DNA of 64,000 bases from Escherichia coli (GTDB taxonomy: Bacteria > Pseudomonadota > Gammaproteobacteria > Enterobacterales > Enterobacteriaceae), in NCBI RefSeq assembly GCF_046105845.1, contig NZ_CP151004.1. One strand, written 5' to 3'. How positions within the stretch are numbered: position 1 is the first letter of the stretch; every line of letters begins with the position of its first letter. The notes below the pieces were generated by a model. That model was given only the letters and a program-made list of their open reading frames with translations, made no database searches and was not told the origin of the DNA. Position numbers and translations under genes: made by a program. Of this stretch, positions 32,863 to 62,964 are shown piece by piece.

Positions 32863-33033
32863 TTCCTGAACTTCAGAATCATCTTGCTGCTGCTTCGATT
32901 CAGCAAGGATAAAGGGTATGATAGTGAAAAGGGATAAAAGCATTGTCATCTGCGGCAGCTATGAGTAATGTTGGCCCTAACGAATAGCGGTTGCTTAAAC
33001 GAATCCGACTCTCACATTATCAGGGGTATAAAA

Positions 33034-33363
33034 ATGGAAACTACCAAGCCTTCATTCCAGGACGTACTGGAATTTGTTCGTCTGTTCCGTCGTAAGAACA
33101 AACTGCAACGTGAAATTCAGGACGTTGAGAAAAAGATCCGTGACAACCAGAAGCGCGTCCTGCTGCTGGACAACCTGAGCGATTACATCAAGCCGGGGAT
33201 GAGCGTTGAAGCAATCCAGGGCATCATCGCCAGCATGAAAGGTGACTATGAAGATCGCGTTGACGATTACATCATCAAAAATGCCGAGCTCTCCAAAGAA
33301 CGCCGCGATATCTCCAAAAAGCTGAAAGCTATGGGCGAAATGAAAAACGGCGAAGCGAAGTAA
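33034..33363 (+). CDS. yeeX: DUF496-family protein
   Basis: 109 aa from [14 protein letters not shown]; ORF track includes a 22-codon upstream extension. Confidence 0.9.
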
Positions 33364-33378
33364 TTCCTGTTTTATTCA

Positions 33379-33403
33379 ATGAGGGTTGCCCGGCAACCCT
33401 CAT
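33379..33403. terminator. bidirectional hairpin between convergent yeeX and pduV
   Basis: atgagggttgcccggcaaccctcat perfect palindrome. Confidence 0.6.
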
Positions 33404-33463
33404 TGCTCATTGATTCTTTTCTGTGCATCACCGTCATCATTCTCATCTGAGAACCTGTCGAAA

Positions 33464-33907
33464 TTAGCGACAGCCTTCTTCTGTATGCAGCAAGGCTAAA
33501 AGTTCTGCAACTCCATTGTTATTAACCACACTGGTTACTAACACGTTGTGCGCTCCAGCTTCCCGTAACCAACATTTCACCAAAGATAGTTGTTCCATGT
33601 TGGCTAAATCTGCTTTGGTTACTACTCCAATGACCGGGCGATTCATTGACGAGGTAAAGCCTGGCGAAAAAGGTGACCACGGTGCGTCCGCATTAAGCAC
33701 CAGCGCGATAATGTCCGCTTCGCAGGCACTGACCAACAGTGCACTGTAGAGGCTGCGGTTTTCGAGGTATTCGCCTGGTGTATCAATGGTGGTCGGGGAC
33801 CAGACGATTGCCTGCGTTTTCTGATAATGAATATTTTCGCCACGCAGACATTGCGTGAGTGACGTTTTTCCGCACTGGCTGGGGCCGATGAGCATCATAC
33901 GTTGCAT
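33464..33907 (-). CDS. pduV: propanediol-utilisation microcompartment GTPase (EutP/PduV family)
   Basis: 147 aa; P-loop GPSQCGKTS; last gene of the pdu operon. Confidence 0.9.
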
Positions 33908-36162: not shown

Positions 36163-37271
36163 AACAACTCCTCGAGCAGTTCTGCAATAGCGGTGGCATC
36201 AGCCGCACGCGGGTTGGTACGCAACGTTGCATCCGCCAGTGCCGCCTGAACCATATCTGGTATGCGTATTGACCATTCTGCTTTTTTTTCTTTCAGCACA
36301 TTGGTAAGAGTCGGTAGCTTACAGGTTGTTTTAAGCTGTTCAATATGTTGAATAAGTGCATTCAGGCTGGCGGTGTCATTGGCGTTGTCCGGGCATAAAT
36401 GGCACGTTTTCGCCAGCCGGGCGTAGCGTTTGGCAGCGCGCGGATCGCCAGCATTAAAGCGGATAACTGCCGTGAGCAGGAGCGCATTCGCCAGGCCGTG
36501 TGGCAGATGAAACTGTCCGCCGAGTTGATGAGCAATTGCATGGTTTAAACCGAGTCCGGCCTGGCTAAAGGCCATTCCTGCAAGCGTCGATGCATTATGC
36601 ATTTTGCCACGGGTGGCAAGACAATTGCCTTTTTTCACTGCAGTGGGCAGGTATTGAAAAACAATTTGCACGGCTTTTTCGACCAGTGCATCCGTGAAGT
36701 CGCTGGCGCGAGGAGAAACATAAGCTTCAAGCGCATGGGTTAAAACATCCATCCCGGTATTGGCCGTTATCGCCGGTGGCACGCTGACGATCAGAGATGG
36801 ATCAAGGATCGCGATATCCGGATAAAGTGCATTATCGAAAAGGGGATATTTAATCCCTTTCTCAGGATCGCTGATGACACAAGCACTGGTCACTTCGGAA
36901 CCGGTACCGCTGGTGGTAGGAATGGCTACGCAGGTTTCAATTTCAATGCCACACTGGCGACCGAACCAGACAATCGCTTTTGCGGCGTCCAGGGCAGAAC
37001 CGCCGCCAAAACCGATAACCACATCCGGGCGTAAAGTCTGCATTTGCGCAATGCCTTTCACCACGGTCTGGATAGTTGGGTCGGGCGTTATTTCGCTAAA
37101 AATACTAAGACGATTACTGTCGGGCAGCGCCTGATGCAACGTGTCAATAAGTGGTGAGCGTGCCAGAAAGGCATCGCAAATAATCCAGATGTGTCTATGA
37201 GAGAAACGGCTAAGTACCTTGAGACTTCCTGGTCCGCTGTATAAACGCGTCTGCAGTGAAAAAGTATTCAT
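36159..37271 (-). CDS. pduQ: 1-propanol dehydrogenase (iron-containing alcohol dehydrogenase)
   Basis: 370 aa; Fe-ADH family (GGGSALDAAK motif). Confidence 0.92.
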   Translation of the reverse strand: MNTFSLQTRLYSGPGSLKVLSRFSHRHIWIICDAFLARSPLIDTLHQALPDSNRLSIFSEITPDPTIQTVVKGIAQMQTLRPDVVIGFGGGSALDAAKAIVWFGRQCGIEIETCVAIPTTSGTGSEVTSACVISDPEKGIKYPLFDNALYPDIAILDPSLIVSVPPAITANTGMDVLTHALEAYVSPRASDFTDALVEKAVQIVFQYLPTAVKKGNCLATRGKMHNASTLAGMAFSQAGLGLNHAIAHQLGGQFHLPHGLANALLLTAVIRFNAGDPRAAKRYARLAKTCHLCPDNANDTASLNALIQHIEQLKTTCKLPTLTNVLKEKKAEWSIRIPDMVQAALADATLRTNPRAADATAIAELLEELL

Positions 37272-37281
37272 TTCCGTTTCT

Positions 37282-38667
37282 CTAGCGAATTGAAAAGCCG
37301 CTGGTTAACACGCAGCGTCGTGAGCGGGCAAAAGTCCGTGCTGACGTTGTCCCTTCTCCGGTCGGTGTTGCAATGGTAAAGGTCGTAAAGCCTTCGCCGC
37401 CGACGCCAATACCCGCCCAGGAGGGGCCGTTTTTGACAAAGATTGAGGTTTGCATAACGCGTGCGGCAAGGTTGAGCCGTGAGACGTTCTGCGAGTGCAT
37501 AATTGCCGTGTGGTGCAAGCCGTCTTCCACTTTCAGCGCCAGGGTGAGAGCGCTATCAAAATCGTTGACCTTCACAATGGGCAGCATTGGCATCAGTTGT
37601 TCACAAGTAACCCAACTATCATTGGCGTCGACAACAGCAATCAGTAGGCGCGGCGCTTTTGCGGGCAAAGGGAGGCCTGCCGCTTCCAGCAAGGCTGATG
37701 GGCTTTTCCCAACCAGTTTTTTGTTGGCGCTACCGTCTGGCAGGCAAATTGCACGCAATTTCTCCGTTTGCTCATAGTTAAGAAGAAGCGCGCCAAAACT
37801 TTGCATCTGCTGAATTAAATACTCTGCCACTGATGCTACGACAATCAGGCTTTTTTCAGCGATACACGGCAGGTTGTAATCAAATGAAGCGCCGTTGATG
37901 ATATCTTCGGCGGCTTTCACAATATCCGCCGTTTCATCGACGATACACGGAGGGTTACCCGCTCCGGCACCAATCACTTTCTTGCCACTTTTCATTCCCA
38001 TGGCGACGATCCCCGGACCGCCGGTAATCGCCAGAACGCTGATTTTAGGGTGCGCCATCATCTGTTCGGTAGCAGCAAAGGTCGGTTCAGATACGGTAAC
38101 GATCAGGTTATGAATGCCACTACAGCGAAACGCGATGTCTTCGATTATGGTAATCAGTTTTAACGAAACGTTTTTGGCTCCCGGGTGTGGACTGAAGTAG
38201 ACGCTATTACCTGCTGCCAGCATGCTGATGCTGTTGTTAATGATGGTTTCCGTGGGGTTGGTGCTTGGCGTGACCGAGCCAATCACCCCAAACGGAGAGT
38301 ATTCAAACAAAACCATGCCACCATCACCGGTCAGTGCTGTGGTGGTTAAATCTTCAATTCCAGGCGTGTTATCAAGTGCCGCTTTGTTTTTTAGGTACTT
38401 ATCTTCTTTATTTCCCATCCCCGTTTCTTTGGCGCTTTCTTCTGCCAGTTCGGTCAGGCGGGGCATTAATTCTTCGCGAATGGCGCTGATAATGGCGCTA
38501 CGGGTTTTAAGCGGGCACTGTTGAAAGCGTAAAAAGGCCTGGTGTGCTGCGCAGACCGCTTCATCAACAGTCTGGAAAATAGCGTTTCTTTGCGCTCGTT
38601 GCGTAGCGGGGGCAAGCTGCTCACGCAGAATATTGCGGATCAGTGTTTCTAATTCAGAGTTATTCAT
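37282..38667 (-). CDS. pduP: CoA-acylating propionaldehyde dehydrogenase
   Basis: 461 aa aldehyde dehydrogenase with amphipathic N-terminal extension MNNSELETLIRNILREQLA. Confidence 0.93.
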   Translation of the reverse strand: MNNSELETLIRNILREQLAPATQRAQRNAIFQTVDEAVCAAHQAFLRFQQCPLKTRSAIISAIREELMPRLTELAEESAKETGMGNKEDKYLKNKAALDNTPGIEDLTTTALTGDGGMVLFEYSPFGVIGSVTPSTNPTETIINNSISMLAAGNSVYFSPHPGAKNVSLKLITIIEDIAFRCSGIHNLIVTVSEPTFAATEQMMAHPKISVLAITGGPGIVAMGMKSGKKVIGAGAGNPPCIVDETADIVKAAEDIINGASFDYNLPCIAEKSLIVVASVAEYLIQQMQSFGALLLNYEQTEKLRAICLPDGSANKKLVGKSPSALLEAAGLPLPAKAPRLLIAVVDANDSWVTCEQLMPMLPIVKVNDFDSALTLALKVEDGLHHTAIMHSQNVSRLNLAARVMQTSIFVKNGPSWAGIGVGGEGFTTFTIATPTGEGTTSARTFARSRRCVLTSGFSIR

Positions 38668-39671
38668 TGGTTTACTCCCACGTTAATTGCCGCCATTGCG
38701 CTTTGGGCAATATCCATGTCTTGTTCAACGCTACCACCGCTGATGCCAAGCCCCCCGAGCAATATTCCGTCACGCCAGAGGGGGAAGCCGCCACCAAAGG
38801 TGACGACTTTGCCTTGCATATGGCTTTCGAGCCCATAAAGCGGCGCGCCGGGTTGCACGGTATCAGCAAGCTTGTGGGTTGCTGTTTTCATCGCCACGGC
38901 GGTCCAGGCTTTTTTCGGTGCCAGTTCACTGCTGACCAACAGGGCATCAGGCATCCGCCAGGTAACACTTTCTGTTCCGTTGGCATCAACAATGCTGATG
39001 ACAACGGGAATATGCAGTTCATCCGCGCGCATTGCCGCACTACGAATGAGCTGGTGAAGATCCTGAAATGTGAGCGGCATTGTGCGTTCCTTCAATGCTG
39101 GTGTGTGGTTGGCTTCGTGATAACGTTTTGTGATTTCCTGAATCATCAGGTTTTGATGAGCAACGTTGTCTTCCACTCGGGCGAGGGCATACAGGCAATC
39201 GGAAAGTCGGTTGATATAGTGCAGCAAAACATTCCGGACGTTGGTTTCCGTTGTCAGTTCAACCAGACGTCTTTCAGCCCGTCGAGCCACTGTGCGGGCG
39301 AAATGCATGTGGCTTGCGGCTTCAGATCGACCAGGCAGAATGAAGCTGTGAACTGGGGGGACGGCGTTCATTGCGCTATCGATCGCGTTTTCCAGCGCAG
39401 CAATTTCTTCCGTACTGATGTAACGCTGCTTCGCTGACGGCTGTTCGCTTTCACTCGCGAGTTCGGCGCTAAACCAAAATATCTGTTGTTGAATGGCTTC
39501 CAGTAAGATGCGATGGCTTTCGATGGCGGTGGCGCAATAACACAGACTGAGTGTCGCGTTCAGTTCATCCAGCGTGCCATAGGTTTCGACACGTAGATGA
39601 GTTTTGCTGACGCGCTGTCCGGTAAATAAAGACGTACTTCCTGAATCACCTGTTCGGGTATAAATTGCCAT
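38664..39671 (-). CDS. pduO: ATP:cob(I)alamin adenosyltransferase PduO
   Basis: 335 aa; N-terminal MAIYTRTGDSGSTSL PduO-type ATR domain plus C-terminal domain. Confidence 0.93.
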   Translation of the reverse strand: MAIYTRTGDSGSTSLFTGQRVSKTHLRVETYGTLDELNATLSLCYCATAIESHRILLEAIQQQIFWFSAELASESEQPSAKQRYISTEEIAALENAIDSAMNAVPPVHSFILPGRSEAASHMHFARTVARRAERRLVELTTETNVRNVLLHYINRLSDCLYALARVEDNVAHQNLMIQEITKRYHEANHTPALKERTMPLTFQDLHQLIRSAAMRADELHIPVVISIVDANGTESVTWRMPDALLVSSELAPKKAWTAVAMKTATHKLADTVQPGAPLYGLESHMQGKVVTFGGGFPLWRDGILLGGLGISGGSVEQDMDIAQSAMAAINVGVNQ

Positions 39672-39682
39672 CTTTCAGCTCC

Positions 39683-39958
39683 TTAGCGCGAAAGCGTATC
39701 GACAATGCCGACCACTGCCAGGTCGATGGCTTCGTTAGGGCCGGAAAACACATGTCTGGCGCTGGAACCACTGCTGAGGAGTACCAACTCACCAACGCCT
39801 GCGCCGACGGAATCAACGGCAACTTCGTCGCCAGTTAATGGCGTGAGAGGCAGTTCGCCGTCAGCACTGACCCGGCGAACCAGCAGCAGTTTTTTCCCGA
39901 TCAGAGAAGGTGATTTTTGCGTGGATACTACCGCGCCAGTGACTCGAGCCAGATGCAT
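39683..39958 (-). CDS. pduN: BMC vertex (pentamer) protein PduN
   Basis: 91 aa EutN/CcmL-family. Confidence 0.9.
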
Positions 39959-39961
39959 AGG

Positions 39962-40453
39962 TTACTCCTGCCTGATTAACTGAATATTTCGGGTAATTGC
40001 CGCTTCACGAGCCAGTGCGGTCACACAACATTTCCGCTGTAACACCAATATTCCCGAGCTTAACTGTGCGATATCGACATAACTTAAAAGTCGATCATGA
40101 TGTAGGTAGATCGGTTGCCCTTGTTCGTCGCACCAGCTTAGCGGTAGACGGGCGAGAGTCTTCAATTCAATGGCGTTCAGGAAATGACGCTGCAACGCCA
40201 ATTGAATGTGCATTCCCCAGGCTAACGCTTCGTGTATCTGGATTGCTGCTCGATCTGACGTTTCGTTCTCCGCAAGTTGTCGCAGCAGCGGCAGATCGAC
40301 ATATCGGATTTGTAATGACGCATACTGATGAACGCTCTCTTGAACGCTGGCGTCTCGCAGTTGAAAAACAGTCAGCACGAGTGTTTTTCCCGCACGTTGT
40401 TTAAGGCGAAAAACCACTTCGTCAACAATACGTTGCATCAGTATGTTATTCAT
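39962..40453 (-). CDS. pduM: microcompartment structural protein PduM
   Basis: 163 aa; position between pduL and pduN; overlaps pduL stop. Confidence 0.85.
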   Translation of the reverse strand: MNNILMQRIVDEVVFRLKQRAGKTLVLTVFQLRDASVQESVHQYASLQIRYVDLPLLRQLAENETSDRAAIQIHEALAWGMHIQLALQRHFLNAIELKTLARLPLSWCDEQGQPIYLHHDRLLSYVDIAQLSSGILVLQRKCCVTALAREAAITRNIQLIRQE

Positions 40454-41082
40454 GGCATTGACACCAGTGTGGCAAAAACGTCAGGGCTATCAGCCCCTGC
40501 GGCGTTGGCCTCATCGGTATCAATATGCATTTCAAGACGCATATCCGGAGAGACGCGAACAGCGACGTTTTCGAATATCAGTCGTCGCTCATCACCTTCA
40601 ATGGCAACCGCCACTTTTTCGCCATGCGTAACGCCATAAATCAGGGCATCCAGCGGAGACATATGAATATGCCGTTGCGCGACAATGACGCCAGATGTGA
40701 TCTCCAGTTCCGCAAATGGACTTATCAAACGAATCCCCGGAGTGCCGCTGAGATCGCCTGACATGCGTAGCGGGGCGGTGATCCCTAACGTTCTGGCGTC
40801 CGTCCGGGAAATTTCCACCTGACTTGCATTGCGTAGCGGCCCCAACAAGCGAACGTTGTGCAATTTACCTTTTGGTCCCTCCAGCGTAACAACCTGTTCA
40901 GCAGCGAATTGGCCAGGTTGCATTAACGGCTTTTTCTCGCTAATCGGTTGTTCAGGAAAAAGACGCAAATAATCCGCTGTTGAAAGATGAATATGACGAC
41001 TGGAAACACCCAGAGGGATAGGGCGCTCACGCATCTCATCCAGAATCTGGCTCACTGTTTCCTGCAAGGTTTGTTTATCCAC
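40450..41082 (-). CDS. pduL: phosphate propanoyltransferase PduL
   Basis: 210 aa; PduL/EutD-type phosphotransacylase with N-terminal amphipathic peptide. Confidence 0.92.
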   Translation of the reverse strand: MDKQTLQETVSQILDEMRERPIPLGVSSRHIHLSTADYLRLFPEQPISEKKPLMQPGQFAAEQVVTLEGPKGKLHNVRLLGPLRNASQVEISRTDARTLGITAPLRMSGDLSGTPGIRLISPFAELEITSGVIVAQRHIHMSPLDALIYGVTHGEKVAVAIEGDERRLIFENVAVRVSPDMRLEMHIDTDEANAAGADSPDVFATLVSMP

Positions 41083-41084
41083 TG

Positions 41085-41507
41085 CTACTCCCCTCGCTTA
41101 TTGGTGTGCAGGCAAAGTGAGCGGGGCTCACCTTTTTGCCGCTGACATGCCGGGTCAAGACACAAATTACAACTGATAATCTCTGAGGTGACGGTTGTTG
41201 CTGGTGTTTCGCTTGTTTCAACCGTCCCAGTCAATGCTTCAGTTGTGTGGGGCAGAATGCCGTCTCCCGGGCGGGCAATTACTTTGTGTGCGACAAGGCT
41301 ATTTCGCTGTCCGGCGAAACTGGCTCCCGTCGCGATCGCCGCATTAACCGAGGCGACGTCACCGGTGATTTTGATGAGCGTCCAGCCTGAGCCATTGGTC
41401 TTCTCAAGGCCAACCAGCATGATAGACGCGGCTTTTGCCATAGCGTCTGCGCAACTGATGGCGAGAGCCAGACCACTGACTTCAAGTAATCCCAGTGATT
41501 GCTTCAC
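41085..41507 (-). CDS. pduK: BMC shell protein PduK
   Basis: 140 aa; N-terminal BMC domain plus Cys-containing C-terminal tail. Confidence 0.88.
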   Translation of the reverse strand: MKQSLGLLEVSGLALAISCADAMAKAASIMLVGLEKTNGSGWTLIKITGDVASVNAAIATGASFAGQRNSLVAHKVIARPGDGILPHTTEALTGTVETSETPATTVTSEIISCNLCLDPACQRQKGEPRSLCLHTNKRGE

Positions 41508-41530
41508 GCTGTGCTCCTTAGCAAATGGGG

Positions 41531-41806
41531 TTATGCCGATTTAGGTAAAATAGCCTCAACATCACTGTGTGGGCGCGGGATGACATGGCAGGATTTCACT
41601 TCGCCAACTGCGCTTGCCGCAGCGCTCCCCGCATCCACGGCGGCCTTTACTGCACCAACATCACCGCGGACCATCACCGTAATCAGACCCGAACCAATCT
41701 TTTCATAGCCAACCAGTTGCACGTTGGCGGATTTAACCATGGCATCTGCAGCTTCAATTGCGCCAACTAACCCTTTTGTTTCAACCAGTCCTAGTGCGTT
41801 GTTCAT
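41531..41806 (-). CDS. pduJ: BMC shell protein PduJ
   Basis: 91 aa canonical BMC hexamer protein, close paralogue of PduA. Confidence 0.93.
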
Positions 41807-41825
41807 ACTGCTTTTCTCCTGTGGA

Positions 41826-42176
41826 TTATGAGTGGAGTTCCCGGAAGGGAATCCCTTTTACCAGGCGGGCAGCGTTAGAGCCAATGCTGCGCCGGGCATG
41901 GTTATCTTGTTGATACATCAGCGTAAACAGTGGCGCTGATGCCGGTAAGTTTTTGTAATGCACAATCAGTTTTTCCTGATCGCAGGCAATGCCAACCAAC
42001 AGGGGAGATTGACGAGCAGCCAGCCAGGCGCTATCGATAACTTCACCTGACGGAATGTGTTGAATGCGAAAGGGAATACCTTCCTCTTCAATGCCAAGAA
42101 GCACCTCATCCCATATAGTGATGCAGTTACCGATCTCCATGACGACGATGGCTGGTGCTCGCTCTTTACTTTCCAT
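41826..42176 (-). CDS. pduH: diol dehydratase reactivase small subunit
   Basis: 116 aa; follows pduG with an 11-nt overlap. Confidence 0.9.
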
Positions 42177-43998
42177 GAATCGACTCCTTGTGCCAGGCGA
42201 TGAGTAGCCCAGTAGCTACCGCGTTGCGCGGACCTTCGCTACCACGGATATTCCCCCGTCCGGCGACCAATCGATAATGCGCCAATGCATCGGTGACTAA
42301 CTGCGGTACTTCGAAATCCAGCGAAGAACCGCCCACCAGAACGACGAACGGAATATCGCGAATATTTCCTGCAGGGCTTACCTGACGTAGCGCGCGCAGG
42401 GCATTGGTTACGAAGACACGCTCTTTCGCACTGCGACGGACAGCGCGTACTTTTTCCAGCGTCAAATCACCGGGAATAGGCACCAGTTCGTCGGGTTTCA
42501 CTACACAGACGCGGGCAAATACATGGGGGGATAGGGGAGTAGGGAAGAACTGAACGCTGCCATCTTCATGGCGTAAGTGGAACAGGCTTTCTACTTTTGC
42601 CAACGGGTACTTTTTGATTTCTTCTGCCAGATAACGATCATTTAAGCCCAGCTCACGAACGATAATCATCGTTACCATGTCGCCCGCACCCGCAAGGTGA
42701 GTGGCAACAATTTCCCCTTTCTGATTGATGATGGAGGCATCGGTAGAGCCTGCACCTAAGTCCAGAATTGCCAGTGGACGTGTGGTTCCAGGGGTAGTCA
42801 AGGCCCCCTGAATGGCGGCTTCTGCTTCTGCGCCTCCTACCTGAACATCAACATGCAGTTTTTGCTTAATTTCACTGGCGATCATTGCCATTTGCAGACG
42901 GTCGGATTTCACCATAGAGGCAATACCCACAGCCTGTTCCAGTGAAAATTCACCTGCCAGACCGCCGGTTACGCTGACGGGGACAGAGGTATCTATCGCC
43001 AGCAAATCCTGAATAAAAATTTCGTTGCTGGGTTTGTTGGTCAGTTCCGCCATGGTCTGGCGAACATGTTCCAGCATTCCGCCGATGTTGGTGCCTGGTT
43101 CTCCCGTCACGTTTTCCAGTTTTGGGCACTCACCGACCGCTTTCATAATGGCATCGGCACCAGCAGCTACATCAACGCGCGTTGTGCGCCCGGCAGAAAG
43201 CAGTTCGATATTTCCGGCGGGTATCGAACGGGCTTTAACGTCGCCAGAAGGCGTTTTCACTACCACTGCTGAACGGTTGCCGATTAGCGCCCGCGCGACA
43301 GGAACAATATTTTTAGTCTCTTCAGCATTGAGGGCGAAAACGGTGGCAATCCCATACGGGTTAGATAGGGTTTCGATAACTTTCCCGGGAACGGCAACTT
43401 CAATTGCAGCCAGCATGCCGAGCGGAATACGATCGATGTAGAGGACTTCATCAACAATAGGTAGAGGAATTTCCAGGCGGTTATTGACCAGTACGCCATC
43501 GTCGCGTTGCAGAATAACGCCAGTCAGCTGATATCCGGCGCGTACGGAGGCGTTTATCATCGTCGCGATATCGGCAAAATCAAATGCCGATGACACCACC
43601 AGGATGTAAGGTGTGTCCGCCGGGCGTGTTAATAACTCTTGCGGAGTGATGGTGAGCCCTACGCCCAGCCCCACTCCGCCCGGAGTTTTCGGGTTGTGAC
43701 CGATCATGGTTGATTCGGTGATGATGGTTTCAGTGATGGTTTCCATCGCCACATCACCAATGACCGGAGTTGCTTCGTTGATACGAATAAGCGAAATATC
43801 GCTAACATTGATGCCGACTTTTTTCGTTGCCTGTGCGAGCGCCTCCTGAATACCATGGACGTTACGCAACGTACCTTTAATTCCGGTGGTTTCCGCCAGG
43901 GCGCTACTTACGAACGACAACTCTCCAGTTGCACTGAGCGTTGCCAGCGCAATCTCTGTTGATGAGTTACCGATATCAATGCCTGCTATATATCGCAT
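42166..43998 (-). CDS. pduG: diol dehydratase reactivase large subunit
   Basis: 610 aa; actin/Hsp70-like ATPase fold, N-terminal MRYIAGIDIGNSSTE. Confidence 0.95.
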   Translation of the reverse strand: MRYIAGIDIGNSSTEIALATLSATGELSFVSSALAETTGIKGTLRNVHGIQEALAQATKKVGINVSDISLIRINEATPVIGDVAMETITETIITESTMIGHNPKTPGGVGLGVGLTITPQELLTRPADTPYILVVSSAFDFADIATMINASVRAGYQLTGVILQRDDGVLVNNRLEIPLPIVDEVLYIDRIPLGMLAAIEVAVPGKVIETLSNPYGIATVFALNAEETKNIVPVARALIGNRSAVVVKTPSGDVKARSIPAGNIELLSAGRTTRVDVAAGADAIMKAVGECPKLENVTGEPGTNIGGMLEHVRQTMAELTNKPSNEIFIQDLLAIDTSVPVSVTGGLAGEFSLEQAVGIASMVKSDRLQMAMIASEIKQKLHVDVQVGGAEAEAAIQGALTTPGTTRPLAILDLGAGSTDASIINQKGEIVATHLAGAGDMVTMIIVRELGLNDRYLAEEIKKYPLAKVESLFHLRHEDGSVQFFPTPLSPHVFARVCVVKPDELVPIPGDLTLEKVRAVRRSAKERVFVTNALRALRQVSPAGNIRDIPFVVLVGGSSLDFEVPQLVTDALAHYRLVAGRGNIRGSEGPRNAVATGLLIAWHKESIHGK

Positions 43999-44007
43999 AG
44001 TTCGTCC

Positions 44008-44526
44008 TTAATCGTCGCCTTTCAGTTTTTTGCGCTCGACATAAAGCTCCGCAGCTTCACGGACAAATGCAGCACAAATTTTGGCCTGATAACGCCGTTC
44101 AAGATCGTCAGCAATGGCAATGAGTTCTTGCTTAGTCGAACGATAAGGGCGTAACGCATTGTAGATTTCGAGGATACGATCATCCGGTACTGAGGTAAGC
44201 TCAGCGGCGCGTTCAAAATTCATCGCCAGACGATCGCGACCAGCATCTCTGGCAATCGCAGCCTGAATACGCAATGTTTCAGGGGTAATGCGCATATCCT
44301 GGGCGGTGACGTTATCGCTTAGCACATTTTCCAGAGTGAAATCGTCGAGCGTTTTATTGGTTGCTGTTTTAACCCATTCCGGATGTTTATTTGCCAGCGG
44401 ATAATCCGTCACTTTGGCGCTCTGTATTGACGCGCTGGGGACCGCAGAAACAGGAGCTGCATCCTGTAAACTGTTCATGCGATTCAACACGTCCCTGACC
44501 ATCGACTCAATTGCATCGGTATTCAT
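44008..44526 (-). CDS. pduE: B12-dependent diol dehydratase small (gamma) subunit
   Basis: 172 aa. Confidence 0.93.
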   Translation of the reverse strand: MNTDAIESMVRDVLNRMNSLQDAAPVSAVPSASIQSAKVTDYPLANKHPEWVKTATNKTLDDFTLENVLSDNVTAQDMRITPETLRIQAAIARDAGRDRLAMNFERAAELTSVPDDRILEIYNALRPYRSTKQELIAIADDLERRYQAKICAAFVREAAELYVERKKLKGDD

Positions 44527-44540
44527 GAAGATTTCCTTTG

Positions 44541-45209
44541 TTAAAACGTCACGCGCAGTTCTTGCGGTTTTTTGCCAGTGACCACGTACTTCGTCTCTTT
44601 GATATGCAAAATGGCAGATTTAGCCTGGTATTTCGGCCGCGCCATTTGATCGTTGAGGGTCGGCACCGGTTGTGGAGACTCACGCTTTGCATAACGCGCG
44701 GCGTTTTTGCCAATCTGACGATAAGTTTCCAGCGTCAACAAAGGCGCTTGTGGGAATAGTTCCAGGTTAGACAAGGGAGGAAGACCCTGCTGGTGGATAA
44801 CCGTTGTGCCTTTCGACTGAATACCGATAGCAATACCTGAACCACTAAGACGATCGCCTTCGACTGCTACGAATGCGACATCGGACGATTTAAAGCAGCG
44901 AATCACACGGGCTTTAATGCCTTCTTCTTCAATACCAGCAATCACTTCGCGCAAGATGTTTTTATGCGGAATACCGATGATATTGACGGTTTGCGCCAGG
45001 CCGAACGCCGGGCCTACAGCAATAATGACTTCATCTTGCTGAGTGCCTTGTTGGGCTTCGCCAATTTCGGTCAGAAAATTTCCGGTATCTGGCGCGGAAG
45101 AGGCAGTTGCAGAGACAGGTGCGCGAAATGAAACGGGCTTGTCGCTGGTTTGCATTTCTGCCAGCACGTCTTCGATAATCTGACGCAGTAATTTTTCGTT
45201 AATTTCCAT
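44541..45209 (-). CDS. pduD: B12-dependent diol dehydratase medium (beta) subunit
   Basis: 222 aa with N-terminal amphipathic extension [19 protein letters not shown]. Confidence 0.93.
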
Positions 45210-45218
45210 GTCTCACCC

Positions 45219-46883
45219 TTAGTCAATTTCGTTGGGATCAAGTGCACCGGGAATATTTTTGATCTCTTCCCAGCGTTCCCCTTGCAGGCGGTAACCTGTA
45301 GCCGGTCCGGCGTAATCATTGACGTCATTGACCGCAGAGAGCACTTGTCCGTCATCGACGATGATGGCTGAGGTATGGAGATAATCGCCGGTCAGTTTTG
45401 CTTTTTGCATGTTGAGCATGTCCTGGGCGACATCGGTAAAACCGCCTTGCGCCAGGGCTTTCACCACTTCCAGGCTGTTCCGGTTTTTATTGATAATCTC
45501 CTGGGCGAACTTGATGTCTTCCACAATATTGCGCTCAGGCATATCTTTTGAACCGTGGGCATAGGTTGCCGCTTCGACTTCTTCATCGGTAATAGGCGGT
45601 AGTCCCATACCGGCAAAGACAGCCTGTAAAGCGCGAGCGGCTTTATTGCGGATAGCGATAACATCTTCTTCGCGTACTGGTCGCAGGCCGCCATCAACCT
45701 TCAGGTCACGCTGAATGACGTTGTAATCATCGAAGTCTTCAGCATCTTCGTTTGAACCAGCAAACATGTTGTCATAGTTCGGCACAGCGGAAAAACCGGA
45801 AGAGATAAAGTCGGTACCTGGCAGAAACTGCATCAGGAAACGTGCGGTACGGCGCATATCCGAGTGGGTAAAGGTCTGGTCATTACTGGAGGCGCATTCC
45901 AGATCCAGCGATGAGCAAATTAAGTTTTCCGCTAATACTGCGCGGATGCCTGATGGCACAGCTGATGGAACACCGATGCAGCTTACCGAACCATTCTGCA
46001 GGCCCTGAACGCCTGCGGCTTTGGTGATGTAAATGCAACGAGCCTCGAGATAAAGCATTGATTTGCCTTCCGCGTAACCCATCTGTACTTCAGAGCCGGA
46101 GCCGGAAGTAAAGCGCATTTTTAAGCCGCGAGACGCATAGGATGACGCGAGAAATCCTTTTGACCACGGGGTGTCATCGCCATCGGTGAAAACAGGTTCT
46201 GTACCATAGACAGAAATTGTTTCGGCGTAACAGGTGTGGCCTAACATACCGAGTTTCAGTTCGGTGGCTTCTTCCAGTGAACACTGGGTCAAGACGCCCG
46301 GACGTCCCACCTGTGAGCCGACCAGCAGGGCGATGGCGTTGAACGGGGCATAGCGAGCAACGGCAACGGTGGTTTCCTGTTCATCAAACCCGCGCCATGC
46401 GCCTTCAGCTGCGTCGGCGGCAATTTGTACCGGGTTATCTTTGACGTTGGTGACGTGAGCCTGTTGTGATGGTGTTCGACGGGCGCGCATTTTCTGCATC
46501 GCCATCATCATCTCTACCACGTTCATCAGCGAAACAACTTCGACGATTTTTGCAGGCGTCATTGCTGTGGTAAGGGGAACGATATTGCTACGTTTGACAT
46601 TTGGATCGCACAACATATTGGCAAGTTTTACCGAATCCATCGCGATGACTTCTTCTGCGCGCGCGAGATTGATGCCGTAGCGGGCGATAAAGTGGTCGAT
46701 CAGGTCAAACTGGCTGGCGGGTTTTCCATCCAGTTCGGTAACGACGCCGTTAACAATTTTGATTGATGGTTTAGGATCGTTCGGGCTTTCCATCGCAATG
46801 AAGCCTTCTTCAATCCACTCTTTAACGAAACCGTCCTGGTTGACCGGGCGTTTTGCCAGTGCTTCAAATCTTTTCGATCTCAT
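45219..46883 (-). CDS. pduC: B12-dependent diol dehydratase large (alpha) subunit
   Basis: 554 aa; matches PduC throughout. Confidence 0.97.
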   Translation of the reverse strand: MRSKRFEALAKRPVNQDGFVKEWIEEGFIAMESPNDPKPSIKIVNGVVTELDGKPASQFDLIDHFIARYGINLARAEEVIAMDSVKLANMLCDPNVKRSNIVPLTTAMTPAKIVEVVSLMNVVEMMMAMQKMRARRTPSQQAHVTNVKDNPVQIAADAAEGAWRGFDEQETTVAVARYAPFNAIALLVGSQVGRPGVLTQCSLEEATELKLGMLGHTCYAETISVYGTEPVFTDGDDTPWSKGFLASSYASRGLKMRFTSGSGSEVQMGYAEGKSMLYLEARCIYITKAAGVQGLQNGSVSCIGVPSAVPSGIRAVLAENLICSSLDLECASSNDQTFTHSDMRRTARFLMQFLPGTDFISSGFSAVPNYDNMFAGSNEDAEDFDDYNVIQRDLKVDGGLRPVREEDVIAIRNKAARALQAVFAGMGLPPITDEEVEAATYAHGSKDMPERNIVEDIKFAQEIINKNRNSLEVVKALAQGGFTDVAQDMLNMQKAKLTGDYLHTSAIIVDDGQVLSAVNDVNDYAGPATGYRLQGERWEEIKNIPGALDPNEID

Positions 46884-46901: not shown

Positions 46902-47714
46902 TCAGATGTAGGAAGGGCGATCGTTTTTCGGTGTATCGCCGAGAGTCGAAAGCACGGTTTTACCGATTTCGCGTGCAGAGATGACCGCCTGGCGGACTGC
47001 GCCGGAGTCACCCGAGATAATCAGAATGACTTCATTGCTGTAGCTGGTGCCTTGAGCGGGGGAGCTGTATGCCACAACATCCACATTGGCGGACTTCAGC
47101 GCGGTGTCGGCCATCAGAACACCCACAGCAGCCGGAGCGCCGACAATAACGCCGCAAGCCCGTCCCAATGGTGCACCAAACGCTTTTTCCAGTGCATAGC
47201 TGGCGCGGGCGGTATATTGCAGCTCAAGATGTCCGGCTTCGTTGGCATAGACATCGCCAAAGGTCCGATCGAGTTCTTTCAGGGCGACTTCAATACCGCG
47301 TTTCACGTCGGAAACATCGTTGCCACCTAAGAGGATCAATGAGCCATGTCCGGCACCGCCTTTAGTATCCCGAGGAAGTTCAATGCTAATAACTTCAGTG
47401 TTGGTGGCTTTTACCGCTTCATCAGCGGCCATAATGTGTGGCCCTGCGCCAATACGCGCACCCAGAATGCCAATGGAACGATAGCGTTTTTCAAGTTTCA
47501 TTGCGTCCAACAGGGCGCTATCAACGTTCGCAATGACCAGACCTACAGTGTCGCCAATAGCGGTGCCAACAAATTCTGTTAACGTGCAGCTTTTTTCTGC
47601 CATAGCCGTCTCTCGTATTTGATGAGTGGTTTTCGGGAGAACCTCATGCTCTGGCGTCGCTACGCGAGCGATGACCTGCGCCATGATCTGTTTGACCAGT
47701 TCATTGCTGCTCAT
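46902..47714 (-). CDS. pduB: BMC shell protein PduB (tandem BMC domains; internal start gives PduB')
   Basis: 270 aa; in-frame internal Met at residue 38 (codon 47601..47603). Confidence 0.95.
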
Positions 47715-47995
47715 GGGTTAATTCCCTTTGGTAAGATTTTTTCGACATCGGTATGTGGGCGGGGAATAATGTGCACGGCTTTTACTTCGCCGACGTTACG
47801 CGCAGCTGCGGCACCTGCGTCTGTTGCCGCTTTTACCGCCCCGACATCACCACGAACGATGACGGTCACCAGCCCGGAACCTATTTTTTCGTAGCCGACC
47901 AGCAAAACATTTGCCGACTTCACCATGGCGTCTGCGGCCTCTATGGCGGCAGTTAAGCCTTTGGTTTCTACCATTCCTAACGCTTCTTGTTGCAT
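47711..47995 (-). CDS. pduA: BMC shell protein PduA
   Basis: 94 aa canonical BMC hexamer protein; first gene of the pdu operon. Confidence 0.96.
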
Positions 47996-49316: not shown

Positions 49317-49518
49317 CGAAATAATCTGGCAGTTATAAACGTTTATTTTTTTACTGTTTGTGATCTGCTTTCCGAACTTATTAAAAAGTCTCCCGCTTCA
49401 CGGAGGCTTTTGTTATTGTCCTTTGTGCTTCTCGTCAGTAAATCATCAGGGATGATGTGAAGATTAAATGTAAAACAATTGTTTTGCTATAACAATAAAT
49501 TAACTGGGAGGTTTTATC

Positions 49519-50433: not shown

Positions 50434-50544
50434 AGTAAATGCCCCAAAAAAAGAGGACGGTTTAAATAAACTCTGCAATGAATAATTAACGTTATTTACC
50501 TGTTATGGGAAAAGTGAAATCAGCTCATAACATACGCTGACAGG

Positions 50545-50760
50545 TGTGGCACATTTGTGCCTGGGAAGAGGGTGAAAATCCCTCGCAGCCCCCGCTGCTG
50601 TAATGCTGACAAACCCGAAAATGCCACTGATCGCGAGATTGGGAAGGTCGGGAGAGGATGACGCTAAGCCAGAAGACCAGCCAGTCAGTCAATACCAACA
50701 ACTTCGGTGGGAAGTGGGTTGCCCGGAAGCGTCCGGTAGAGTACCGGCGCGTCTTTATAC
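50545..50760 (+). promoter_or_regulatory. cobalamin (B12) riboswitch-like leader
   Basis: Contains GGTGAAAATCCC, GCAGCCCCCGCTGCTGTAATG, B12-box GCCACTG, GGGAAGG and AAGCCAGAAGACC elements in the order typical of cobalamin riboswitches. Confidence 0.6.
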
Positions 50761-50917: not shown

Positions 50918-51355
50918 ATGAAAACGATAAAACCCGAATCGATAGCTCTTTTTTGCCTCTTATCTGGAGATGTGGATCTGGCGAAATATCTGGCTGAAAT
51001 ATTGCCAATAACCTGTTTTGTTGGTGAGGACTGGCAGCAAGATTTCCAGCCTCTTGATGGTGGGTCTGTGCAATCGTTATCAGATGTGTATGGCGATTAT
51101 TCAGTGCTGCTATTGATAGCAGCTGAAAGCGAGATATCCGTACCAGAATGGCTCGCTCATTCTGAAGGAACGACGGTAATTGTGATTGCAGAACACAATG
51201 CCCGTTTGCTGACTGGTCCGGCTGGTGGGGCTGTAGCATTGATCCATTATCTGAATGAAATCTGTCATTCCAGAGAAACCGCTGTCAATGACGCATTTTG
51301 TCGTACGTTAACACGAGGAAGTCTGGCTATTCCGCAATGCCATCTTCTTTCGTAA
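50918..51355 (+). CDS. hypothetical protein downstream of the B12 leader (possible cbi remnant or novel ORF)
   Basis: ORF 50849..51355; internal ATG at 50918 preceded by GGAGGG; no family recognised by eye. Confidence 0.3.
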   Translation: MKTIKPESIALFCLLSGDVDLAKYLAEILPITCFVGEDWQQDFQPLDGGSVQSLSDVYGDYSVLLLIAAESEISVPEWLAHSEGTTVIVIAEHNARLLTGPAGGAVALIHYLNEICHSRETAVNDAFCRTLTRGSLAIPQCHLLS

Positions 51356-55014: not shown

Positions 55015-55992
55015 ATGGAAAAGAGAATGACGAAACAGAATAAAAACAGCCGTTGGCAGGGTTACGATCCTCGTTACATATACTCGCTCGTGGTCAGACG
55101 CTATTTTGCGGATATGAAAACCAAGATTGAGATTGCTGAGGAGCTTGGCGTTTCCCGCTTTAAAGTTGCCAGATTGATCGATGAGGCGATCGAACAGGAT
55201 TACGTGAGGTTTATCTTCCCTAAGCAGCAAGCGATGGATGAAGAAATCGCCAATAATCTACGGAAAAAATTTCATCTGGAAGATGCAATTGTTCTTTCAG
55301 TTGCTGAATCATGGACGACGCAAGAAGAACTCAATCACAAATTGGGTGAAGTCACCGCTGAATATCTTACGCAATCTCTTCATGAAGGTATGAAAGTGGG
55401 GATCGCCTGGGGACGTGTATTATCAAGTACGGTCAGTAAGTTGAGCAAGCTGCCTCCTTTAGACGTTGTGCAGTTATCTGGCGTACATCCGGGGATTGAG
55501 TTTAGTCAAGGGCCAATAGATCTTATTCATAAGATCGCTGCCATTTCGCAGGGAAAAGCGCACCCAATGTACGTGCCGATGTGGGTCGATGACGAAGAGC
55601 TTGCTGCCAGACTGGCAGGTGATCCTGCGGTATTAGATACACAGCAATATTACTCACAGTTGGATGTGGTTATCACCGGGATAGGTGACTGGAAATCAGG
55701 TTCTTCAAGCTTGTGTAAAATATTTCCGGATACCTGGTGCGAAGCTTTGTTTCAACAAGATATCGCTGCGGATGTGTGTATCTCGTTGGTCAGCAGGGAA
55801 GGGAAGATTCTTCATAGTCCTATTGAACGTCTGGGATTTGGCATTTCGACGGATCAACTACAAAAAGCCAAAAAAGTGATTGGTGTCGCCGGAGGGGAAG
55901 AGAAATATGAAGGCATTCTTGCTTCGCTGAAATCTGGACTTTTGAATGTCTTAATTACTGATTTTGATACGGCCATTAAACTTCTGGATTAA
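55015..55992 (+). CDS. SorC-family transcriptional regulator (sugar-binding domain)
   Basis: 325 aa; N-terminal HTH (IAEELGVSRFKVARLI) and C-terminal sugar-binding domain. Confidence 0.8.
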   Translation: MEKRMTKQNKNSRWQGYDPRYIYSLVVRRYFADMKTKIEIAEELGVSRFKVARLIDEAIEQDYVRFIFPKQQAMDEEIANNLRKKFHLEDAIVLSVAESWTTQEELNHKLGEVTAEYLTQSLHEGMKVGIAWGRVLSSTVSKLSKLPPLDVVQLSGVHPGIEFSQGPIDLIHKIAAISQGKAHPMYVPMWVDDEELAARLAGDPAVLDTQQYYSQLDVVITGIGDWKSGSSSLCKIFPDTWCEALFQQDIAADVCISLVSREGKILHSPIERLGFGISTDQLQKAKKVIGVAGGEEKYEGILASLKSGLLNVLITDFDTAIKLLD

Positions 55993-56043
55993 TAGCCGTA
56001 TCTGTGAAGAAAGGGCAGTACCGCTGATTCTGCCCTTTTAATT

Positions 56044-56502
56044 TCAGGATGCTGCGAGCGTATCCTCTACATATTTAGCCACGCGCGTTGCAGGTAAATT
56101 GCGGCAAGTCTCAACAAAGGCGTTATCCTGAAACAGTGTGAATAAACGACGCAATATCGACATATGTTGATCACTGGTGGCAAATGCCAGGTTAAACATA
56201 ATGCTACAATCAACTGTTAAAGCAGCATCTTCCATCTGTCCGAAAGTGACATCATTGGAGAAACGAACAATACTGATGCTGTTTACATTTACCAGCGTGT
56301 AATCGGCATGGGGAATGGCGATACCCTGACCGTTTGCCATCATTAATCCTGTCGGATAGCTTTTTTCACGTTCCAGACAGGCGTCAATGTATTCTGCAGT
56401 GATGTAGCCTTTTTCCAATAATTGCGTACCAGCAAAGGTGATCGCCGTTTGATAGTCGTTGATGCTGTTATCAACATCATTTACCAGAATTTCAAATTTC
56501 AT
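56044..56502 (-). CDS. PTS EIIA component (type 2)
   Basis: 152 aa; conserved phosphorylatable His in GIAIPHAD. Confidence 0.85.
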   Translation of the reverse strand: MKFEILVNDVDNSINDYQTAITFAGTQLLEKGYITAEYIDACLEREKSYPTGLMMANGQGIAIPHADYTLVNVNSISIVRFSNDVTFGQMEDAALTVDCSIMFNLAFATSDQHMSILRRLFTLFQDNAFVETCRNLPATRVAKYVEDTLAAS

Positions 56503-56512
56503 TGCACACCTG

Positions 56513-56797
56513 TTATTTCAGTATCTCTTCTTTAACTGCAGCGAAAATCTCATCTTCGCCCAGACCAGTCAGTAATCCAGCGCCAACGATGACACGAGTA
56601 GTAATGGCCGGGTTATCGAGTTTGGTCGATGAAACCACCAGGTCATAGCTGTTGAAGGTATCGCTGGTGCATGCCATTAACGAAGATTTATCGACTTGCG
56701 CTTCAATTTTCTCTTCTTTCAGTAAGTCCTGCAGTACAGAGACCATGATGGAAGATGAGGCAATTCCGTTTCCGCAAACTACTAAGATTTTTTTCAT
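56513..56797 (-). CDS. PTS EIIB component (galactitol-type)
   Basis: 94 aa; active-site Cys in KILVVCGNGIASS. Confidence 0.85.
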   Translation of the reverse strand: MKKILVVCGNGIASSSIMVSVLQDLLKEEKIEAQVDKSSLMACTSDTFNSYDLVVSSTKLDNPAITTRVIVGAGLLTGLGEDEIFAAVKEEILK

Positions 56798-56820
56798 TTG
56801 ATTATTCCTCTGTAAAAGAT

Positions 56821-58191: not shown

Positions 58192-58194
58192 ACA

Positions 58195-58731
58195 TTAACC
58201 CTCAGATTTTTCATCATCTGGTCGGAAACCCATATTCCAGCGTACATCAGCGGGCTTAACCAGCAATGCATTATCGTTACGTTCAGCTTCTAGTAAGTTC
58301 TTTTTAGAATTTTCTCTGGCGGTGGTGAAGTCGAATGGGTTATCCAACCATGCATCGACAATCATTTTGCTGTATTCGAGATCGTTGACCCGGCAACCCA
58401 GTCCAATAACTTGTGCGTTATTGCTGAGTCGCGCCCGCTTTGCGGAGTAGGGGTTAGTAACCGCAACGGCTCTTATGCCCCAGTGTTTGTTGATCTGACA
58501 AGTAAAGCCAATGCCAGTCCCACAAATGTAAATTCCCAGACGGCACTCATCGCGTTGAATAATGCCTGCCATTTCGTCGGCTAGACGCGCGAAGTTATTG
58601 ACACCTTGTTCCTTACATGTGACGGGATCGTACACGATCTCCATGTTTTTCTCTTCTATGAGGTATTTTTTTATCTCCTCTTTACGTGCAAAACCTACAT
58701 CATCGCTTGCGATAGCAATCTTCGTTTTCAT
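58195..58731 (-). CDS. RpiB/LacAB-family sugar-phosphate isomerase
   Basis: 178 aa; CGTGIGFTCQINKHWGIRAV and KMIVDAWL closely parallel RpiB motifs. Confidence 0.85.
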   Translation of the reverse strand: MKTKIAIASDDVGFARKEEIKKYLIEEKNMEIVYDPVTCKEQGVNNFARLADEMAGIIQRDECRLGIYICGTGIGFTCQINKHWGIRAVAVTNPYSAKRARLSNNAQVIGLGCRVNDLEYSKMIVDAWLDNPFDFTTARENSKKNLLEAERNDNALLVKPADVRWNMGFRPDDEKSEG

Positions 58732-59079
58732 TTCATTTTGCCTGTCGTTAAGTAACTAAAGCCAAGTATGCTGTTGGTAAATATTGGTTGTCAATTGAGA
58801 TCTAAATCACAAAATTTATAACTGATTGATTTTTATGATAAAAAAAACCAATAAAAACAAATAAAAAATAAATTAAGCCAATTGAGACAAATTGGGATTG
58901 TACAGTGGCGTTGTAATGAATAATAAAAACTCATTTATTATCAATCGGATATATGGTTTTTGAACTATTGTCTTTATTGGGTTTATTTGTACTTTCCACT
59001 GTTAGTGTTTGTTTTTGTTTGCATCATCTGTGCTATGCTTGGCGTTTTCTAAGATGGGTAATAGATTTCAGGAGGAAGG

Positions 59080-60616: not shown

Positions 60617-60634
60617 TAAAAACTGGAGTTTATT

Positions 60635-60928: not shown

Positions 60929-60948
60929 ACCTGACAGGAATAATAAAA

Positions 60949-62202: not shown

Positions 62203-62224
62203 TTTAATAATCTGGAGTTTTAAC

Positions 62225-62869: not shown

Positions 62870-62964
62870 TCATAATCTAAAAATTTTACATCCAGCTAAG
62901 TGAGGTTTTCGATTTCATATCGGGAGGAAAACCCCAACTAAAAAGTCTTTAATGGAGAAAAGTA

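Follow-up and report, generated by a model that had tools for sequence, protein, structure and literature searches.

Probable N-terminal encapsulation peptides on PduP, PduD and PduL in the propanediol-utilisation locus of an Escherichia coli genome

Do the N-terminal extensions of the enzymes encoded in an Escherichia coli pdu operon target them to the propanediol-utilisation microcompartment? The question arises from a 64,000-nucleotide stretch of E. coli DNA (hereafter the window; contig NZ_CP151004.1 of assembly GCF_046105845.1), for which an earlier note proposed that PduP, PduD and PduL begin with short amphipathic segments of the kind that carry cargo enzymes into Pdu microcompartments. 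Encapsulation peptides on these three enzymes are already known, having been characterised since 2010-2015, and they are in wide use as synthetic-biology tags. The practical value of the present analysis is the annotation of peptide, linker and domain positions in the E. coli pdu locus (Table 1).

The pdu locus and its reading frames

At 33.4-48.0 kb of the window, the minus strand carries an E. coli pdu operon with the gene set pduABCDEGHJKLMNOPQSTUV and all 19 pdu reading frames full length and intact. The genes run from pduA to pduV, where the operon ends without pduW or pduX. Next to it there are no cbi genes (B12 synthesis), and pocR, pduF and cobUST are intact. The operon is 99% identical to E. 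coli chromosomes. The locus was found in 647 of 5426 complete E. coli genomes (12%), with an identity of 95-99% across those 647. Shell proteins are encoded in the same operon as the peptides, by pduA, pduB, pduJ, pduK, pduT and pduU (BMC domain) and by pduN (EutN/CcmL).

RefSeq annotation, Pfam and NCBIfam agreed with the gene names PduP, PduD and PduL that had been assigned from the sequence. PduP matched the NCBIfam model NF011927 with 718 bits over residues 1-461 (cut-off 403), and further full-length matches were obtained to NF011616 (393 bits, cut-off 248) and NF011652 (255 bits, cut-off 209). PduD matched the Klebsiella oxytoca diol dehydratase beta chain 1DIO_B with an E value of 1.6e-126. 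Judging from the full-length family-model matches and the conserved operon position, the three proteins are rightly regarded as orthologues of their Salmonella and Citrobacter namesakes. The same three starts (pduP, pduD and pduL) are annotated by RefSeq in an E. coli chromosome of 99% identity. The pduL gene starts with GTG, its product beginning (M)DKQTLQETVSQILDEMRER, and a Shine-Dalgarno sequence, GAGGGGAG, lies 5 nt upstream of this codon. In Citrobacter the homologous codon is ATG and the codons downstream differ synonymously. By the Shine-Dalgarno sequence and the Citrobacter ATG, the GTG start is sound.

Table 1 Features of the pdu locus related to the putative encapsulation peptides, in window positions
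Feature	Position	Strand	Basis
pduP, CoA-acylating propionaldehyde dehydrogenase, 461 aa, ATG start	37282..38667	-	ORF, RefSeq annotation, Pfam, NCBIfam
PduP linker, residues 20-31, PATQRAQRNAIF, running into catalytic domain start	38575..38610	-	Translation, alignment starts
PduP putative encapsulation peptide, residues 1-19, MNNSELETLIRNILREQLA	38611..38667	-	Translation, tag identity, hydrophobic moment
PduM residues 1-23, MNNILMQRIVDEVVFRLKQRAGK, signal-sequence motif on structural protein	40385..40453	-	Translation, NCBIfam PduM equivalog
pduL, phosphate propanoyltransferase, 210 aa, GTG start	40450..41082	-	ORF, RefSeq start, Pfam
PduL linker, residues 21-23 (PIP), ahead of first PTAC strand	41014..41022	-	Translation, structure model
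PduL putative encapsulation peptide, residues 1-20, MDKQTLQETVSQILDEMRER	41023..41082	-	Translation, predicted helix, L20 identity
pduJ, shell hexamer, proposed peptide-binding partner	41531..41806	-	Annotation and review
PduE N-terminal extension, residues 1-20, MNTDAIESMVRDVLNRMNSL, probably no targeting signal	44467..44526	-	Translation, moment 0.67
pduD, diol dehydratase medium (beta) subunit, 222 aa, ATG start	44541..45209	-	ORF, Pfam, 1DIO_B match
PduD linker, residues 20-47, Ser/Ala/Pro/Thr-rich	45069..45152	-	Translation, K. oxytoca alignment
PduD putative encapsulation peptide, residues 1-19	45153..45209	-	Translation, Salmonella/K. oxytoca identity
PduB residues 1-37, amphipathic helix (about 1-22) and linker, before internal PduB' start M38	47604..47714	-	Moment 0.69
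pduA, shell hexamer, proposed peptide-binding partner	47711..47995	-	Annotation and literature

Amphipathic helices, linkers and catalytic domains

The N-terminal segments were present on all three minus-strand genes as quoted in the earlier note, and each precedes a catalytic domain. The Pfam domains span residues 32-289 of PduP (Aldedh), 67-179 of PduD (Dehydratase_MU) and 24-197 of PduL (PTAC). For PduL, both the general NCBIfam model and the solved structure 5CUO match from residue 22 onwards, and solved relatives of PduP align with it from residues 22-28. The linkers between peptide and domain are about 5 residues long in PduP, 3-5 in PduL and about 28 in PduD; a published review gives about 5 residues as typical of microcompartment phosphotransacylases. 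Between PduD and its K. oxytoca counterpart, the linker (residues 20-44) shows about 44% identical columns with two indels, whereas the peptide is about 95% identical, as is the remainder of the protein outside the linker.

Residues 4-18 of PduP, PduD and PduL contain no Gly or Pro and have a mean helix-propensity cost of 0.36-0.42 kcal/mol. The sequences repeat a pattern of two hydrophobic residues followed by two polar ones, with a period of about four residues. The earlier note's description of alternating hydrophobic and charged residues needs one qualification, the intervening residues being polar (N, Q, S, T) as often as charged. Because a period of about four residues corresponds to 85-90 degrees, the maximum hydrophobic moment of residues 4-18 was scanned at 80-110 degrees per residue and set against real N-termini and internal windows. 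The moments were 0.61 for PduP, 0.70 for PduD (the highest in the window) and 0.55 for PduL. The helical propensity is good, and the moments lie above the background of 56 other N-termini in the window (mean 0.32, standard deviation 0.11), of which 0, 0 and 1 reached the values of PduP, PduD and PduL, respectively. Internal 15-mers (N = 15,205) that matched the moment and were free of Gly and Pro amounted to 0.7% (PduP), 0.2% (PduD) and 1.6% (PduL). Shuffling of each peptide's own residues, a weaker test, gave fractions of 0.096, 0.010 and 0.027 for PduP, PduD and PduL when scanned at 80-110 degrees. With the angle fixed at 100 degrees per residue, the fractions were 0.07, 0.18 and 0.008, PduP and PduD not being distinct from their own shuffles at this angle. 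Given the modest shuffle fractions, amphipathicity alone is supportive and not decisive. A regular expression that required two pairs of hydrophobic residues with a spacing of two residues was rejected as unspecific, since among 45 non-Pdu N-termini it also matched about 10, most of them from membrane proteins.

In an AlphaFold2 model of PduL, residues 3-18 are helical and are predicted with the highest confidence of the whole chain (pLDDT 80-85); residues 19-21 form coil, and the strand that follows starts at residue 22. For PduD, a single-sequence AlphaFold2 model with a mean pLDDT of 37 placed a helix at residues 5-21 (pLDDT 41-53), which is a weak hint. A comparison of the PduP peptide with a library of solved chains of at least 20 residues returned one irrelevant weak match (E = 0.3).

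The extensions were then compared with relatives that function outside microcompartments. Residue 17 of the glycerol dehydratase beta subunit (194 aa) aligns to PduD residue 48, and this subunit therefore lacks about 31 residues. Residues 7-9 of AdhE-type chains align to PduP residue 25, from which the AdhE NCBIfam model also aligns, so that AdhE is without about 16-18 N-terminal residues relative to PduP. The DhaB2/DhaB3 subunits and the AdhE-type dehydrogenases thus have homologous catalytic domains but no N-terminal helix and linker. Since the listed homologues of PduL were all close relatives (at least 79% identity), absence in this family was judged from the boundary at residue 22 in the NCBIfam model and 5CUO together with the review, which sets 227 compartment-associated sequences against 20 controls.

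Identity of the peptides and alternative readings

The list of PduP, PduD and PduL as bearers of such peptides was right for these three and incomplete, as PduM and PduB carry the same motif and are functional signals in Salmonella. There, PduM(1-23) is sufficient for core targeting, and the N-terminus of PduB works as a signal sequence as well as connecting shell and core. PduE also has the motif. Residue 4 of the glycerol dehydratase gamma subunit aligns to PduE residue 35, about 31 residues being absent. In Salmonella, however, PduE(1-16)-GFP was not targeted, and the PduE extension is needed for activity. Because Salmonella PduE has the motif without targeting GFP, the motif alone is insufficient evidence of targeting.

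An encapsulation peptide has been defined by Kinney 2012 and Aussignargues 2015, as quoted in the review, and the three N-termini agree with that definition on each point that concerns the sequence. They are short terminal segments (about 15-20 residues) outside the functional domain. An amphipathic alpha-helix is predicted for them by the moments and the PduL model, with the PduP shuffle fraction standing at 0.096. A linker of small and hydrophilic residues with low conservation joins helix and domain, as seen from composition and conservation in PduD and from length in PduL and PduP. The segments are absent from homologues outside microcompartments, directly for PduD and PduP and indirectly for PduL, and the locus contains shell-protein genes. 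Experiments in Salmonella and Citrobacter showed that the Pdu peptides are necessary and sufficient for microcompartment targeting. The microcompartment-targeting reading of the earlier note is supported by the near-identity of the E. coli sequences to these tested peptides. Taken together, the N-termini of PduP, PduD and PduL are very probably encapsulation peptides of the E. coli propanediol-utilisation microcompartment, and what we infer for targeting and for the binding partner in E. coli comes from the orthologues.

By this reading, residues ~3-18 of each of the three proteins would form a short amphipathic helix, held clear of the enzyme body by a linker whose length is about 28 residues in PduD and about 5 in PduP and PduL. 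On this helix, the repeated hydrophobic pairs, four residues apart, would make up the hydrophobic face. The tagged enzymes would join the cargo condensate enclosed by the shell, and PduC and PduE would be carried in through their complex with PduD. The binding partner is disputed in the literature, the candidates being the core, the groove between PduA hexamers, and the C-terminal helix of PduA/PduJ. It is improbable, in our judgement, that changes particular to E. coli retune the amounts of packaged enzyme or the partner bound relative to Salmonella and Citrobacter; if they did, cargo stoichiometry in E. coli would be measurably different.

The dispute over the partner bears on a different account of how the peptides work, in which they mainly self-associate and nucleate a liquid-like enzyme core without docking to the shell, which joins later through PduB(1-37) and PduM. 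This account concerns the mechanism and not the identity of the peptides. It agrees with the observations that signal sequences stay with the core once core and shell are separated and that D18 and P18 tags co-aggregate the proteins bearing them, with the liquid-like core described by Yang et al., and with the period-4 hydrophobic pairs, which would create a wide hydrophobic surface on which helices could pack against one another. However, PduL binds tessellating PduA in vitro, docking puts all three peptides into the groove between PduA hexamers, alanine scanning implicates the PduA/PduJ C-terminal helix, and D18 and L20 tags send cargo to recombinant empty shells. We regard this self-association account as quite possible, if somewhat less likely than not.

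The remaining alternatives touch on function or on the peptides themselves. That the extensions serve folding, activity or solubility of the enzymes instead of targeting is suggested by Salmonella PduE, whose extension has the same motif, is no signal and is required for activity, and by the use of chains without the N-terminal regions in solved structures of K. oxytoca diol dehydratase, for example 5YRT. Yet the non-compartment relatives function without such extensions, and the PduL model places a helix and then coil before the first domain strand, so that we consider this role very unlikely. It is likewise highly improbable that the operon is a decaying relic whose peptides are kept by descent and no longer used. 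The absence of pduW and pduX, the missing adjoining cbi genes and the restriction of the locus to 12% of complete E. coli genomes would fit decay, but all 19 frames are intact, sequence identity of the locus stays at 95-99% throughout the 647 genomes, pocR, pduF and cobUST are intact, and in published work adherent-invasive E. coli has reportedly been associated with the pdu operon. Finally, an amphipathic N-terminus could arise by chance or from a mis-called start: PduL has an in-frame ATG at codon 17 behind its GTG, and the peptide would be gone if translation really began at Met17, while amphipathic 15-mers occur at about 2-6% of internal positions. Against a start at Met17 stand the Shine-Dalgarno sequence ahead of the GTG, the Citrobacter ATG in the corresponding place, followed by synonymous codon changes, the conservation of PduL residues 1-20 as protein across 120 relatives and the identical pduL start in RefSeq; against chance, six Pdu N-termini hold six of the top seven hydrophobic-moment ranks (N = 62). 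We consider such an error or coincidence exceedingly remote. Encapsulation peptides thus remain the preferred reading of the three N-termini.

Comparison with characterised tags and other microcompartments

The closest counterparts are the Salmonella LT2 signal sequences ssPduP(1-18), ssPduD(1-18) and ssPduL(1-20), which belong to the same genes and share the N-terminal position and the motif of hydrophobic and hydrophilic pairs with the E. coli peptides. The order of the Salmonella pdu operon is also that of E. coli, the E. coli version being without pduW and pduX. The Salmonella PduP(1-18) tag, MNTSELETLIRTILSEQL, is identical to the E. coli peptide at 15 of 18 residues, and the three differences (T3N, T12N and S15R) are all at polar positions. 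The residues L6, E7, L9, I10, I13 and L14, listed in the review as required for encapsulation of PduP, are all present (6/6) in MNNSELETLIRNILREQL. E. coli PduD and the Salmonella PduD(1-20) tag likewise share 17 of 20 residues, the first 16 among them, and R17A, D18E and K20Q are again at polar positions.

C. freundii is the source of the P18, D18 and L20 tags. Its L20 tag, MDKQQLETTVTKVLDEMRER, and the E. coli PduL peptide, MDKQTLQETVSQILDEMRER, are identical at 14 of 20 residues and keep the face formed by L6, V10, I/V13, L14 and M17. Five of the six substitutions are at polar positions and one is conservative (V13I); the start codon is ATG in Citrobacter and GTG in E. coli. Across 23 PduL relatives there is no variation at T9, V10, L14 or M17 and hardly any at L6, and only I or V occurs at position 13, whereas positions 5, 7, 8, 11 and 12 are variable. 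This pattern supports selection on the hydrophobic face of the PduL peptide. The E. coli-specific changes thus comprise three polar substitutions in PduP, six substitutions in PduL, a weak GTG start in pduL and a divergent PduD linker.

The K. oxytoca diol dehydratase beta subunit (PDB 1DIO and 1EEX, chain B/E) is identical to PduD at 18 of its first 19 residues and about 95% identical in the catalytic part, whereas the linker at residues 20-44 diverges. More distant counterparts, compared by description, are the N-termini of EutC and EutE and the C-terminus of CcmN. According to the review, these also place an amphipathic helix of about 18 residues and a linker on a cargo or assembly protein, as in the Pdu peptides, but they belong to different proteins, lack sequence similarity to the Pdu peptides and are sometimes C-terminal.

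N-terminal segments of PduP, PduD and PduL

A complete propanediol-utilisation (pdu) operon occupies the minus strand of the window at 33.4-48.0 kb, in the order pduA, B, C, D, E, G, H, J, K, L, M, N, O, P, Q, S, T, U and V, with pduF and pocR transcribed divergently from it. Of 5426 complete E. coli genomes, 647 contain the stretch 37000-45500, which matches E. coli chromosomes at 99% identity, and the RefSeq annotation of an E. coli chromosome gives identical pdu genes with identical starts. The N-termini that the earlier note had quoted for PduP, PduD and PduL match the translated ORFs exactly.

Coordinates, strands and start codons of the features in the window
Feature	Coordinates	Strand	Start	Remark
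PduP	37282-38667	minus	ATG	N-terminus MNNSELETLIRNILREQLA
PduD	44541-45209	minus	ATG	N-terminus of 19 residues
PduL	40450-41082	minus	GTG	N-terminus MDKQTLQETVSQILDEMRER
pduL start codon	41080-41082	minus	GTG	
PduE N-terminus	44467-44526	minus		MNTDAIESMVRDVLNRMNSL; paired hydrophobic motif
PduM N-terminus	40385-40453	minus		MNNILMQRIVDEVVFRLKQR; paired hydrophobic motif
PduB N-terminus	47604-47714	minus		residues 1-37, ahead of internal PduB' start M38; paired hydrophobic motif
PduK	41085-41507	minus		140 aa
pduV end and tmaR	32968-33907			
STnc230 small RNA match	49375-49458	minus		RF02075, 74.8 bits
Cobalamin riboswitch	50525-50699	plus		RF00174, 109 bits
145-aa ORF	50918-51355	plus		
Sugar-utilisation island	55015-63717			

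The segments also precede the catalytic domains, as had been claimed, since the Pfam matches start at residue 32 in PduP (Aldedh), 67 in PduD (Dehydratase_MU) and 24 in PduL (PTAC). Both the general NCBIfam phosphate propanoyltransferase model and the solved PduL chain 5CUO align from PduL residue 22, while PduP residue 25 is aligned to residue 7 of the NCBIfam AdhE model and to residues 7-9 of AdhE chains. In glycerol dehydratase beta (194 aa), which is not microcompartment-associated, residue 17 aligns to PduD residue 48, and PduD therefore carries about 31 extra residues. It was this kind of alignment argument that originally revealed these peptides. Ser, Ala, Pro and Thr are abundant in the PduD linker (residues 20-47). 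Alignment with Klebsiella oxytoca gives about 44% identical columns and two indels over residues 20-44, and about 95% identity for the peptide and for the catalytic part. The linkers of PduP (about 5 residues) and PduL (3-5 residues) are short, and the PduL type is typical for microcompartment phosphotransacylases according to a review of encapsulation peptides.

Were pduL to begin at its in-frame ATG (codon 17) and not at the GTG, the peptide would be lost, so the choice of start is important. The GTG is supported by four results: a ribosome-binding site, GAGGGGAG, lies 5 nt upstream; the homologous codon in Citrobacter is ATG, and the differences that follow it are synonymous; protein-level conservation of residues 1-20 extends over 120 relatives; and RefSeq uses the same GTG. 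The pduK TAG ends two bases before this GTG, whereas the Citrobacter pduK stop and pduL ATG overlap. PduK is shorter than its 154-aa counterpart in a Citrobacter locus (L003), and the difference falls within the C-terminal extension. In a set of PduL relatives (P0003, P0007, P0015 and P0040), a 340-aa protein encoded on one contig joins a shell-protein (BMC) domain to the PTAC domain of PduL and is apparently a PduK-PduL fusion, and three PduL variants of 186-189 aa, one of them from E. coli, keep the N-terminal peptide.

Helical character and conservation

As expected from the amphipathic extensions that had been proposed, residues 4-18 of all three proteins lack Gly and Pro and have good helix propensity. 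Hydrophobic pairs spaced four residues apart occur in PduP (L9 I10 and I13 L14), PduD (L7 L8, I11 I12 and V15 L16) and PduL (T9 V10 and I13 L14). Because of this spacing the periodicity peaks at about 85-90 degrees per residue instead of 100, so that the strict 100-degree hydrophobic moment is unimpressive against shuffles. When the maximum over 80-110 degrees was taken, the moments were 0.61 (PduP), 0.70 (PduD) and 0.55 (PduL), against a mean of 0.32 ± 0.11 for the window's other 56 N-termini, only one of which exceeds PduL. Those three values were reached without Gly or Pro by 0.7%, 0.2% and 1.6%, respectively, of internal 15-mers (N = 15,205). An AlphaFold2 model of PduL (23-sequence alignment) predicts a helix at residues 3-18 (pLDDT 80-85), where this mediocre model (mean pLDDT 68) is at its most confident, followed by coil and a first strand from residue 22. 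The single-sequence PduD model is poor (mean 37) and gives only a hint of a helix at residues 5-21.

Among 23 distinct PduL relatives, no change is seen at T9, V10, L14 or M17 and almost none at L6; position 13 holds I or V, and positions 5, 7, 8, 11 and 12 vary freely. The hydrophobic face is thus under selection. The PduD peptide is identical to the Salmonella LT2 PduD(1-20) tag at 17 of 20 positions, including the first 16. PduP shares 15 of 18 residues with the LT2 PduP(1-18) tag MNTSELETLIRTILSEQL, all three differences being at polar positions, and keeps every residue shown to be important by mutagenesis (L6, E7, L9, I10, I13 and L14). PduL matches the C. freundii L20 tag MDKQQLETTVTKVLDEMRER at 14 of 20 positions, with the hydrophobic face kept.

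Surroundings of the pdu locus

The operon ends with pduV and is directly followed by tmaR on the opposite strand; the Salmonella operon closes with pduW and pduX, both absent here. The match to STnc230, an enterobacterial small RNA, falls between pduF and pocR, on the strand that encodes neither of them. Downstream of the riboswitch are the 145-aa ORF, which has no Pfam match, and then cobU, cobS and cobT. In Salmonella the cbi genes for B12 synthesis follow this riboswitch; they are missing here, and thus the riboswitch now stands ahead of an uncharacterised ORF. The sugar-utilisation island downstream of ldtA encodes one SorC-type and one DeoR-type regulator, two sets of PTS EIIA_2 plus EIIC-GAT, an RpiB/LacAB isomerase, a ribulose-phosphate 3-epimerase and a short-chain dehydrogenase. 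In its place, the strain used for comparison, O17_K12a, carries tRNA-Asn, nac and cbl; no tRNA genes were found in the whole window.

Proposed targeting role and related Pdu N-termini

The N-termini of PduE, PduM and PduB carry the same motif, and when the 62 N-termini of the window are ranked by amphipathicity, these three and those of PduP, PduD and PduL fill six of the first seven places. The internal PduB' start is conserved. In Salmonella, a 2025 study showed signal-sequence function for the N-termini of PduM and PduB but not for PduE(1-16), even though PduE is extended compared with glycerol dehydratase gamma. Since Salmonella PduE has the motif yet no signal function, the motif is a good lead to targeting and not proof of it.

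On the favoured reading, weak, multivalent contacts made by the hydrophobic face of each helix would draw the tagged enzymes into the cargo condensate and also anchor this condensate to the shell, with PduC and PduE carried in by PduD. The bound partner is debated in the literature. Core components are one candidate, as the tags stay with the core once it is parted from the shell; others are the groove between tessellating hexamers of PduA, a shell protein, and the helix at the C-terminus of PduA/PduJ.

The segments of PduP, PduD and PduL are confirmed as observed. Their proposed role in targeting is supported by sequence orthology but was incompletely drawn, as PduE, PduM and PduB had not been listed. 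The feature is already known: orthologous peptides have been characterised by experiment, and hundreds of E. coli genomes have it annotated.
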